Shown here in pieces: positions 37,101-40,100 of a stretch of DNA of 64,000 nucleotides. Numbering within the stretch: position 1 is the stretch's first letter; every line of letters begins with the position of its first letter. Made by a program: the position numbers. Origin of the DNA: Escherichia coli (GTDB lineage: Bacteria > Pseudomonadota > Gammaproteobacteria > Enterobacterales > Enterobacteriaceae); NCBI RefSeq assembly GCF_029227855.1, contig NZ_CP074357.1, one strand, 5' to 3'.

Positions 37101-40100
37101 ACTGTGAAAGAAGCTGTAGCAATCGTAGAGGCACGTTTGGAGGTGTTTCGAAAATGAAATCTCTTTTCTTTACTCTTGATGGTCATATGGTACCAGCCTC
37201 AGTGAATGTATCACTTAACGGAGATGGAAATTATTATGCACCTATCGAAAGAGAATGTAACGAATGTGCGGGCACAGGCCACAAAGGGGCTGATTTATGT
37301 GAAAAGTGTCATGGGGTACAAACAGTTGGACCCATTATTGAAAAATTAGTGGCACTAGAGCCAATTACCTTTCTCGATAACATTCCGGAACTGCGTGTTA
37401 ACCCAACACTCGAAGCATGGAAATCCAGAAACCACGTCCTTATTGAGAAAGCAAAAAAGGCTAACACTAAGTTTTCTAATAGTATATTGGCGCAATTAGA
37501 CAATAACCGTTTCTTGACAGAACGCCAGCTGGATTGTTTCTTTACAACTTTTGATGTGATGTTGTCTGAAACTCCGGAAAATGAACAAGAAATTTTAAAA
37601 CATAGCTACAATATCGGCCAGGTCATAAGCATTGAACTAACATTTACTGAAGTCAGGGCCGCGTACGCAAAAAGTAAAGGGAGTTATTTTTTTACATTTA
37701 CTGGTAAAGTTAGAAATGACGGGATCGCTTTAACGGCCGATAAACAGGATCACATTTTATTGGGTGAACGTTATCATTTGACTGGAAAAGTCAGAAAATT
37801 CTATGAATTTGATTCGAAAAATTATGCTGCAATAACAGTTTTTAAGTTAAATAAACTCCAAGACAGTTAAATGTTTTTGCTGCTTAAATATAGAGCCAAG
37901 ACTTTAACTGTCGTTAGGACTCACTCACGTAATATTGTTGCTTACGCAATGGGTTTTATCCCTCATAAAGATCTGCGAGTATAAATCTTTTACATTTAAA
38001 TTCTCCTCTATCAGAACCTTTTCTATTGTAAAAAAATGATAATCTTATTAATTATAATTTTAATTTTTTGTATACCAATACCATACAGTTAAGGCTAAAA
38101 GGTGATGATGGAGATGGACTTTAAAATGCACAATGATCTGGGTCTCGGTTTCATTTGTAAAAATGCAAGAACATCGTCAAAGCCAACGTTAAGAAAAGTT
38201 ACTTTTCCGGTAAGCGCATATGAAACGTCTAAGCTTTCTTTAACCGGTTTTCAATGCCCCACAGCCTGCCGTTTTCCTTTTTTTGTGCTATGCATGATAA
38301 TCCATAACCATCTTTCGTCTGCATGCCCTATCACCCAAAATGAATGTTCAAATCATATCTCGCAATTTTCTATCGACATTAAAGTACAAGATTGGCTTAG
38401 CCGTTCAAGAGTAGCGTTTATTGATTTCCATAATCTTAGAAATACAGATAAAGCCACTTTAATAACAGTGAACCATCTTGAAGCTTTACTTACTGTTATG
38501 TCGACTACTCTTGTCGCTTATGTTCCATATTCAAAAAAGAGACTAAACTTTAGCTTTCTAAACTCATTCACTTTGTCTAAAACTTCTCAAAGTTACACAT
38601 TAACTTTCCCGGTAGTTCTCAGTCCGCTTTTAGATGCTCTTGGCGACTTCATTCAGGAATGCATAACCGAAAAATTGTTAAAACGACGAAATTCGAATTT
38701 CATGGTTTACGAGTATCTTAAACGTTCAGGCCAGAGCTCTCATAAAGTGGAGGACATTAATAACGACTTACAGCTTAAAAGTCTAAATATAAGACTTATG
38801 AGCGTCCTTACTGGCCTTTCTCAGCAAGGACTCATTTCATTTATTTGCGAAGGAAAGAGGGGCGACCGGAGAATAGAAGAGCTTCAGTTTATACCTTATG
38901 TTCAACGAACTTACCCTGAGGTATTAACTTTTGAGGAATGGATTAGCCCAGTTGATTAGAATTTACTCTATTTCAGCACGGCCAGTATTTCTGTTTCCGT
39001 TTTCCGTGTATTCGGCTTACTTCCTACGGATCGGTAAGCGCTGAGTCTGTGTATGACGAATCCACGCTCTTCATAGAGGCCCAAAGTGAATGATGTCAGG
39101 CTATTTGATATCGCAACAGCAGCGCCTTTTCTGTGAGCGTCAACGAGCATATTTGCTAACAGCACGTGGTCGCTTTGGCTGAACGGTTTACCATCGTAAC
39201 TGACAAAACTAGTTTTGCTTGTTTTGTCATATGGCGGATCACAGTAAATCTGATCTCCTTCACCGGTTGCGGCCAGAGTCTCCTCAAAACCAGCGGTGAT
39301 CAGTTCAATACCTGAAAGACGAAATGAAAGGTAGTCTATTTTATTGAGGTCAAGCTTCAGTTCTGTATGTTTCCCCCACGGCACTGAATAGATTCTTTCT
39401 GAGTTATAGCGGCACATACCGTTATAGCCCAGGCGATTCAGGGAGTAAAACAAAGCCGCTCTTTGAAGCGATTGACCAGAAATACAGGTTTTGTTGAAAC
39501 GGTCCCTCATCTCATAGTAGTCCTTTTCGACAAAGGTTTTATCCGCCAAGTTTTGGACCTGATTTATAAAGTTAGTTTTCTGTCTTTGAATAGTCCTGTA
39601 TAGGTTGATCAAGTCTGGATTGCTATCTGCAAGCAATGCATTTTGTGCAAACATGTTCAGAAAAACGGCACCACCGCCTATAAAGGGTTCTACCCACCGG
39701 CAACTATGATCGTGTGGGTAGTGATGGCTGATGAAAGGCATCAGTTTCGTTTTTCCACCAGCCCATTTGATTATCGGCATGTGTCTGAGATGTCGAGTCA
39801 AAGTGTCTATACCTGAGAGAGAAATTTAGGTGCTGGTATCGTACCTAACCACGGGCTTTAACTAATAACTTAGGGAGCAAAAAAAAGTTGTTTAAGACGC
39901 ACAGTTTTGACTTTCAGCATTTCGGATTTATAAGATTTTTCCTCACTTATACCTGAACTTTATGTTTTGGATTTATGTATTTGTTTATGAAGCGATTTTT
40001 ATGCCATCACAAGTAATGGGGAGCCACCTTTTTTTGTAAAAAATCAGAATAGGCTCAAAAAGTACCTTTTTTGCGAAAAATTATGAATTTTTTTTTCGGT

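Follow-up and report, generated by a model that had tools for sequence, protein, structure and literature searches.

A convergent Dam methyltransferase and a predicted Rep-fold winged-helix protein form a conserved gene pair of IncHI plasmids

A standard role of DNA adenine methyltransferases (Dam) encoded by plasmids and phages is protection from GATC-specific restriction in new hosts. Methylated GATC can also be read by DNA-binding proteins. Binding of RctB to its 11/12-mer sites needs a fully methylated GATC, and P1 and ColV-K30 are cited as having methylation-sensitive origins of GATC-rich design (both PMC2865523), while prokaryotic winged helices can sense N6-methyladenine (6mA) in GATC and readers of the DpnI type avoid Dam+ genomes (both PMC11037411). 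The locus described here lies on a stretch of 64,000 nucleotides (the window) from Escherichia coli contig NZ_CP074357.1, and consists of a gene for a Dam-family methyltransferase and a convergent gene for a protein of predicted tandem winged-helix fold, here termed Rep-like. The original prediction had left open whether the methyltransferase is an orphan or half of a compact restriction-modification pair. It is likely that the two genes are a conserved pair of the IncHI plasmid backbone, an orphan Dam and a Rep-fold protein with two winged helices in tandem, and that they do not constitute a restriction-modification system.

Both open reading frames (ORFs) pointed out earlier within 38102-39801 are indeed present, 38102..38959 (+) coding for 285 amino acids (aa) from a GTG and 38968..39801 (-) coding for 277 aa from a TTG. 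They are convergent, with 8 bp between the stop codons. The plus-strand gene most likely starts at ATG 38126, because all IncHI1-type homologues begin there and the first 8 residues are not conserved; PGAP places the start at ATG 38105. The accession of the Rep-like protein is WP_000970402, and that of its IncHI1 counterpart is WP_001178650.

The fold of the Rep-like protein was predicted with AlphaFold2. A first run with 11 close homologues was discarded at a predicted local distance difference test score (pLDDT) of 50, and after three distant homologues (28-44% identity, from the HMMER scan given below) had been added the model reached a pLDDT of 83.3, with a predicted template-modelling score (pTM) of 0.83. 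It has an N-terminal beta-hairpin extension, a winged-helix domain (WH1-like), a linker helix at residues 163-185, and a second winged helix (WH2-like). The helices of the first domain are modelled at residues 87-102, 107-112 and 115-127, followed by four strands, with the invariant P134-Y135-x-x-K138 at a hairpin tip. The WH1 domains of RepA and MSBI1.176, which have 125-129 residues, can be superposed on it over about 112 of them, at 3.0-4.0 Å. In the second domain, helices at residues 189-201, 208-215 and 224-233 precede a two-stranded wing (...GLISFICEGKRGDRRIEELQFI), and the recognition-type helix starts at the invariant R223.

Replication initiators rank first in all three structure libraries searched (pPS10 RepA, RepE, RctB domains 2-3 and phage COG5527 proteins), and no nuclease is among the significant structural matches in them. 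Against the PDB, Foldseek returns RctB domains 2-3 at E 7.3e-5 over 284 aligned columns, RepE at 9.5e-4, and two Rep WH1 domains at probability 0.98-1.00. The viral library BFVD is headed by a 'COG5527 protein involved in initiation of plasmid replication' (2.7e-4) and a 'Replication initiator protein'. Target-normalised TM-scores are 0.51-0.57 for single-domain targets, while the global values for two-domain targets are low (0.25-0.31) because the relative orientation of the domains differs. On the basis of this model, the Rep-like protein is probably a tandem winged-helix protein with the Rep-initiator fold that stands outside Rep_3 and represents an unclassified family.

The original prediction had seen no recognisable motif in the protein, and indeed there is no match in Pfam, NCBIfam or PADLOC, and PHROGs gave nothing usable. 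The only nuclease signal is below threshold (an HNH PHROG at E 0.098, with no passing stretch), and a profile search against PDB sequences found only a marginal match to the winged helix of eS25 (E 0.035). Weak Pfam winged-helix signals occur towards the C-terminus of family members, to the TBPIP/Hop2 winged helix in 4 of 12 (best 5e-4), and to HTH_45 and MCM_C. The family is mildly basic and hence fits nucleic-acid binding. Its only invariant charged residues are D4, R15, R23, R95, D100, K138 and R223, and an invariant acidic/lysine constellation of the PD-(D/E)xK type is absent from the family alignment.

The minus-strand gene encodes a methyltransferase of the Dam class, as had been proposed. 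It matches PF02086 (D12 class N6-adenine methyltransferase) at 1.1e-48 over residues 13-258 and the NCBIfam model TIGR00571 'dam' with 228 bits (cut-off 115), with DPPY and FxGxG intact; its 169 bits do not reach the 441 bits that NCBIfam requires for the equivalog model of the chromosomal enzyme. The PADLOC models for type II and for orphan methyltransferases score it about equally. The closest solved structures are those of E. coli Dam (6e-40), M1.DpnII (1.6e-36) and T4 Dam; among solved sequences M1.DpnII ranks sixth, behind five Dam entries. In the structure of E. coli Dam with DNA, residues K9, Y119, N120, L122, R124, N126, P134, R137 and Y138 reportedly read GATC. Six of these nine (K9, Y119, N120, R124, N126, P134) are identical in the plasmid enzyme, and the substitutions are L122M, R137K and Y138H; residue numbers of the 270-aa form equal those of E. 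coli Dam, save for the first residues, where K5 aligns with K9. Judging from its sequence, the enzyme most probably methylates GATC. Around it, the conserved genes encode ParB-like proteins, a zinc-finger protein, the Rep-fold protein and another methyltransferase, with no cognate restriction enzyme and no nuclease candidate, which supports the orphan option of the original prediction.

The start of dam is most likely ATG 39780. Records differ in this respect: many PGAP/RefSeq entries begin at an internal ATG 39 bp further in (774 bp, 257 aa; for example NC_009838.1 237054-237827), a call that drops the conserved N-terminal KWAGGK, and others give the 813-bp form. Removing this inconsistency from RefSeq would be a small practical correction.

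A 2.2-kb region matches 1,113 PLSDB plasmids at 95-100% identity, nearly all of them conjugative IncHI2/IncHI2A plasmids (MOBH, MPF_F) of Salmonella, E. coli and Enterobacter, such as pAPEC-O1-R. The window is therefore IncHI2 backbone, belonging to a resistance plasmid. A word-indexed search of 5.8 billion proteins yielded 13 clusters of the Rep-like protein, and when 1.84 billion representatives were scanned exhaustively with HMMER, eight matched, only three of them as full-length distant relatives, at 47%, 41% and 30% identity; no homologue was found in phage genomes. As far as these searches reach, the family is restricted to IncHI-like plasmids. PLSDB holds the Rep-like gene in 1392 plasmids and a Dam of the same clade (>=60% identity) in 1391, figures that compare totals and not individual records; the next plasmid relatives of this Dam in PLSDB have less than 40% identity.

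The pair is syntenic and always convergent in eight IncHI-like lineages, in which protein identity goes down to 29%. The common gene order is ParB-like, 66-aa, zinc-finger, 277-aa gene, convergent Dam, second ParB-like and DUF4942-type methyltransferase, followed by a small ORF and a gene for an Ig-like protein. All contexts that were recovered share it, namely those from IncHI2 and IncHI1, from a metagenomic plasmid resembling IncHI2, from a Photorhabdus contig and from metagenomic contigs of public sequencing runs. Dam is better kept across the lineages (93/73/71/69/58/56% identity) than its Rep-like partner (87/58/62/63/45/29%). Against the relative with 87%/93% identity, the ratio of non-synonymous to synonymous substitutions (dN/dS) is 0.23 for the Rep-like gene and 0.14 for dam, values that show both genes to be real and under purifying selection. 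Two natural plasmids carry insertion sequences (IS) in the pair. In the IncHI2 plasmid CP082693.1, an IS2 sits in the middle of the Rep-like gene, Dam is intact, and repHIA and repHI2 are retained; the gene is thus not essential for maintenance, although two other replicons remain. In the other plasmid, IS903B cuts the C-terminus of Dam and the Rep-like gene is intact. The Photorhabdus tasmaniensis contig JASNMP010000008.1 carries the whole block, with an IS630-type transposase gene between the Rep-like gene and the 22-bp element described next, and a fragmented DUF4942 methyltransferase gene; dam is not called there, yet tblastn aligns it end to end at 69% identity.

A short non-coding element of 22 bp lies on the coding strand just past the zinc-finger gene, about 200 bp upstream of the Rep-like start codon. 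It occurs once per lineage, on the same strand, and is invariant in all 8 lineages, whereas the flanking intergenic sequence diverges. The whole 241-kb pAPEC-O1-R contains a single copy. Among the matches in 298 Gb of species-representative genomes, only those in 3 IncHI2 contigs have the genuine context; 13 more fall in unrelated taxa and are consistent with chance, for which about 35 matches were estimated. It is bipartite, with 6 and 12 conserved bases around 4 variable ones, and contains no GATC. Conserved halves around a variable centre give it the dimensions of a single iteron, that is, of the footprint of one WH1-WH2 monomer. The element is proposed as a candidate binding site of the Rep-like protein.

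Other interpretations of the element were considered. With one mismatch allowed, the 12-bp half-element recurs at three other places in the window, of which two are close to the repeat region of repHI2 and one is upstream of the Tra2 operon; these were not taken for a regulon, as alignment finds no extended similarity and the count in the whole plasmid is near the shuffle range. An RNA structure was also rejected (folding z = -0.86, mismatches of the small hairpin uncompensated), and Rfam has no match in the window. Nor, on reading the sequence, do sites for sigma-54, LexA, PhoB or FliA fit.

The GATC cluster that had been noticed in the adjacent origin is there. Six sites occur in the repHIA origin region at 35562-35725, four of them in 48 bp (35607-35654) inside repeats of the motif TGATCT(T/A)(T/A)A, which is similar to the oriC 13-mer consensus GATCTnTTnTTTT; over the whole window, GATC comes about once in 286 bp. 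Close to this cluster is a direct repeat of 19 bp (35459-35477 and 35524-35542).

A mechanism can be proposed for the pair. The Rep-like protein would bind DNA as Rep-fold proteins do, with one winged helix per half-site, and its likeliest target would be the unique 22-bp element that precedes its gene. At this site the protein would be a local regulator or auto-regulator, and not an initiator that opens an origin. Dam would serve the plasmid itself. It could keep the plasmid's GATC sites methylated, among them those of the repHIA origin, whose GATC-rich unwinding region is 3.3 kb away, and could also protect the plasmid from GATC-specific restriction in new hosts. By analogy with other GATC-rich origins, the link of Dam to the repHIA origin that the original prediction suggested is plausible.

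Several other explanations have to be weighed against an orphan Dam with a Rep-fold partner. The 285-aa protein could be a GATC endonuclease of unrecognised fold that is held in check by Dam. The convergent, nearly abutting methyltransferase, a size near that of MboI/DpnII-type enzymes, the almost equal plasmid totals and the faster evolution of the Rep-like protein (29% vs 56% identity in the most distant pair) would all suit a type II restriction-modification pair. However, by the original prediction's own test a fold other than that of a nuclease would refute this, and in silico the fold is non-nuclease and Rep-like, so the restriction-modification reading fails. Initiators, not nucleases, top the structural matches, the family shows no conserved catalytic pattern of acidic residues and lysine, and restriction-enzyme models of PADLOC, Pfam and NCBIfam do not match. 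Nor is GATC depleted in the window, with 224 sites vs 229 expected. The plasmid with the truncated Dam keeps the neighbouring gene intact, a case that is only weakly informative because enterobacterial hosts carry their own Dam. A restriction-modification pair is thus very improbable. Tandem winged helices also occur in protein-protein scaffolds (the kite proteins ScpB, MukE and JetB, PCI, ESCRT-II), and in this role the Rep-like protein would partner the ParB-like proteins in DNA organisation or segregation. Scaffold matches are nevertheless outranked in all three libraries by replication initiators, which align over the full length, Pfam and NCBIfam find no SMC or kleisin-like gene in the block, and the mildly basic character of the family fits nucleic-acid binding; a scaffold is accordingly improbable. 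A working replication factor, either the initiator of a third replicon or an auxiliary, copy-control or handcuffing factor at the repHIA or repHI2 origins, would explain the Rep-initiator fold, and IncHI plasmids are multi-replicon. In IncHI2 a distance of 2.2-3 kb separates the gene from repHIA and its origin, and in one relative (L005) it stands beside a Rep_3 gene. Divergent Reps can escape sequence models, since RepHI2 has no Pfam match at E <= 0.001 despite 43% identity to RepHIA. On the other hand, there is no iteron array or tandem repeat within about 2 kb on either side of the gene (35300-41700, repHIA origin excepted), inverted-repeat and iteron searches around it gave only short matches at chance level, the 22-bp element is unrepeated, and no DnaA box was seen on reading the intergenic sequence. 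For lack of a nearby iteron array, the Rep-like gene is probably not a classical replicon; at repHI2, by contrast, both 21-bp iterons and an array of 81-bp repeats are clear. No Rep_3 gene is called nearby in the most distant relative (L004), and the IS2 insertion also speaks against a replication role, with the reservation made above. To our knowledge, classical cloning of minimal replicons from IncHI plasmids did not identify this gene. A role as replication factor is therefore unlikely.

The Rep-like protein could instead read the methylation laid down by its neighbour, binding GATC sites only when they are methylated and forming with Dam a module of epigenetic control. The best Foldseek match is to RctB, the plasmid totals of the two genes are near-identical, their convergent linkage is tight, and the nearby origin has its cluster of GATC-rich repeats. 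Yet the only conserved non-coding element beside the gene lacks GATC, and the GATC nearby, at 37970, is conserved neither in IncHI1 nor in the Photorhabdus relative. There is no sequence match to winged-helix models of the DpnI type (E <= 10), and the likeness to RctB is that of a generic Rep core, in which we know of no methyl-reading feature. Such a reader, for which the evidence is confined to likeness of fold and genetic linkage, is improbable, and we give a slimmer chance still to the full epigenetic module, in which a Rep-fold protein with a dedicated Dam would bind the 22-bp site or the repHIA origin under the gating of GATC methylation. If this module were real, it would couple IncHI replication, copy-number control or establishment after conjugation to the methylation state of the plasmid.

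Some observations weigh against an orphan Dam paired with a Rep-fold protein that binds the 22-bp element. The fold assignment is a prediction from only 12 sequences. Those 12 family members give no match to Rep3_N (PF01051) or Rep3_C (PF21205) at E <= 10, BLASTP against the resident RepHIA and RepHI2 is negative, and hhalign against an alignment of 25 Rep_3 sequences, although it puts the WH2-like segment in register with the RepHIA WH2, does so at a probability of 3% and E 0.015, which is not significant. The element is invariant while the protein falls to 29% identity, and so it could be recognised by a conserved host factor or by another plasmid protein. On the function of the IncHI dam or of the Rep-like gene, the searchable literature gave only annotations and no experiments.

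The remaining non-coding sequence around the pair is short. Both gene ends are visible in 7 lineages; the stop-to-stop gap measures 5-14 bp in 5 of these, while the two most distant have 53 and 76 bp. Because the genes converge without a terminator between them, their transcripts are expected to overlap and could interfere. Between dam and the second ParB-like gene there is a 25-nt direct repeat, ACCTTTTTTTGTAAAAAATCAGAAT / ACCTTTTTTGCGAAAAATTATGAAT (40026-40050 and 40064-40088, 76% identity), and a GTACCTTTTTTGCGAAAAA block common to IncHI2 and IncHI1. The repeat at 40026-40088 may be an operator for the ParB-like protein. A palindrome, TTCGC-N6-GCGAA, is found at the equivalent position in the most distant relative. 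Promoter-like matches are no commoner than chance in 39781..40149, where a sigma-70-like match is at 39907-39936 (+).

The features of the pair and of its surroundings are collected in Table 1; the names repHIA and repHI2 follow PMC10893270 and are also used in the PGAP annotation. The two ParB-like proteins that flank the pair are paralogues, with about 30% identity over about 190 aa. Three genes separate the first from the convergent Dam, and the second immediately precedes the DUF4942 methyltransferase, an order that points to a duplicated arrangement of ParB-like protein and methyltransferase. IS66 and IS5 elements follow the DUF4942 gene (43648-47245).

Table 1. Coordinates of the gene pair, its parts and neighbouring features in the window
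Feature	Position	Strand	Remarks
Rep-like gene, probable coding sequence	38126-38959	+	277 aa, ATG 38126
WH1-like domain	38261..38611	+	residues 46-162 of 277-aa form; three helices then four-stranded sheet (predicted)
WH2-like winged helix	38690..38899	+	residues 189-258; AlphaFold2 model
Dam-family N6-adenine DNA methyltransferase	38968..39780	-	probable coding sequence, 270 aa, ATG 39780, MPIIKWAGGK
KWAGGK motif of Dam	39751-39768	-	
FxGxG/S-adenosylmethionine motif of Dam (EPFIGGGAVF)	39661-39690	-	residues 31-40 of 270-aa form
Dam target-recognition segment GYNGMCRYN...VPWGKH	39367-39429	-	
Dam catalytic DPPY	39229-39240	-	residues 181-184 of 270-aa form
22-bp element CTGTCGTTAGGACTCACTCACG	37908..37929	+	family pattern CTGYCG-N4-GACYCACTCACG; candidate binding site
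Gap between convergent stops	38960..38967		8 bp, no terminator-like hairpin
dam / second ParB-like divergent intergenic region	39781..40149		must hold both promoters
Tra2 transfer operon	up to ~31.4 kb	-	
IS21-family istA/istB insertion	32149-33950		between Tra2 and repHIA; absent from pAPEC-O1-R
repHIA, Rep_3 family	34532-35407	-	known replicon adjoining gene block
repHIA origin region	35408-35883		holds GATC-bearing 13-mer-like repeats at 35607-35654
ParB-like helix-turn-helix protein (first)	35884-36939	+	conserved block, upstream side
66-aa protein	36957-37157	+	conserved block, upstream side
238-aa protein with DnaJ-type CxxCxGxG zinc finger	37154-37870	+	conserved block, upstream side
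Second ParB-like protein	40150-41313	+	conserved block, downstream side
DUF4942 + N6-methyltransferase-domain protein	41561-43252	+	conserved block, downstream side
repHI2 second replicon	51934-53022		RepHI2 362 aa; repeat regions 51193-51250, 51616-51694, 53511-54420

The 21-bp iterons of repHI2 lie upstream of the gene. Downstream is the array of 81 bp x 11, which has a higher-order unit of 243 bp, inverted TCACTACCGTTGTCA-type motifs and one GATC per unit. An IS3-family element (54746-55986) is beside these repeats, and the replicon is flanked by two paralogues of about 810 aa (48370-50826 and 56488-58908), both with DUF4165, Big_3_2 and Big_3_3, the Ig-like domains of which recall the RSP conjugation protein of IncHI plasmids. 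Further upstream, a 3.5-kb array at 17827-21325 repeats a 249-bp unit about 14 times (73% matches) and has no ORF of at least 90 aa; its equivalent in pAPEC-O1-R is a 4.6-kb unannotated gap between a TraC-family gene and parA/parB. This array may be a centromere-like or incompatibility region.

At least five further methyltransferase-type genes are annotated on pAPEC-O1-R. Besides Dam and the DUF4942 methyltransferase, the annotation lists a DNA cytosine methyltransferase, a 416-aa site-specific methyltransferase, a 253-aa methyltransferase and a second DUF4942 protein. An origin of transfer directly upstream of mobI is expected in this family. On pAPEC-O1-R, about 60 kb or more separates mobI and the MobH relaxase gene from the Dam block, and for this reason a leading-region or anti-defence-island interpretation was not adopted.

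In Salmonella, E. coli and Enterobacter, resistance to multiple drugs, colistin (mcr) and metals has major vehicles in the IncHI1 and IncHI2 plasmids, and for a large part of their backbone the annotation goes no further than 'hypothetical protein'. For the Rep-like gene a structural class can now be proposed, and a false lead, that of a hidden restriction system at the pair, is removed. The protein would be the third with a Rep fold on a plasmid known for two or three replicons. Should it turn out to regulate replication, copy number or establishment, a clinically important plasmid group would have a new control point; if it does nothing measurable, the gain is only better annotation.

Compared with the known systems, the Rep-like protein resembles the Rep_3 / COG5527 initiators (pPS10 RepA, F RepE, R6K pi) and the core of RctB in its predicted tandem architecture of WH1, linker helix and WH2. 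It differs from these initiators in having no detectable sequence membership and an extra N-terminal beta-hairpin extension. Its gene also differs from theirs, with a single conserved 22-bp element in place of an adjacent iteron array; it is dispensable in at least one natural plasmid and always paired with a convergent Dam. RctB has four domains (about 658 aa) and a GATC in each site, whereas the Rep-like protein has 277 aa and equivalents of the two central domains only. The plasmid Dam is, like E. coli Dam and T4 Dam, a D12-class alpha-group N6-adenine methyltransferase with FxGxG and DPPY, and shares with E. coli Dam its length and the lack of an adjoining cognate nuclease, along with six of the nine residues reported to read GATC. 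Unlike the E. coli enzyme, it has the three substitutions given above and forms a clade of its own, confined to IncHI-like plasmids. The arrangement recalls the DpnII/MboI systems, in which a Dam-class methyltransferase stands beside a convergent gene of similar size, but here the neighbour has no nuclease fold, motif or family match, and GATC is not avoided. From the winged-helix 6mA readers of the DpnI type, finally, the Rep-like protein is set apart by the absence of a nuclease domain and of any match to the DpnI family at E <= 10, and, where those readers avoid Dam+ genomes, the Rep-like gene is always found beside a Dam.

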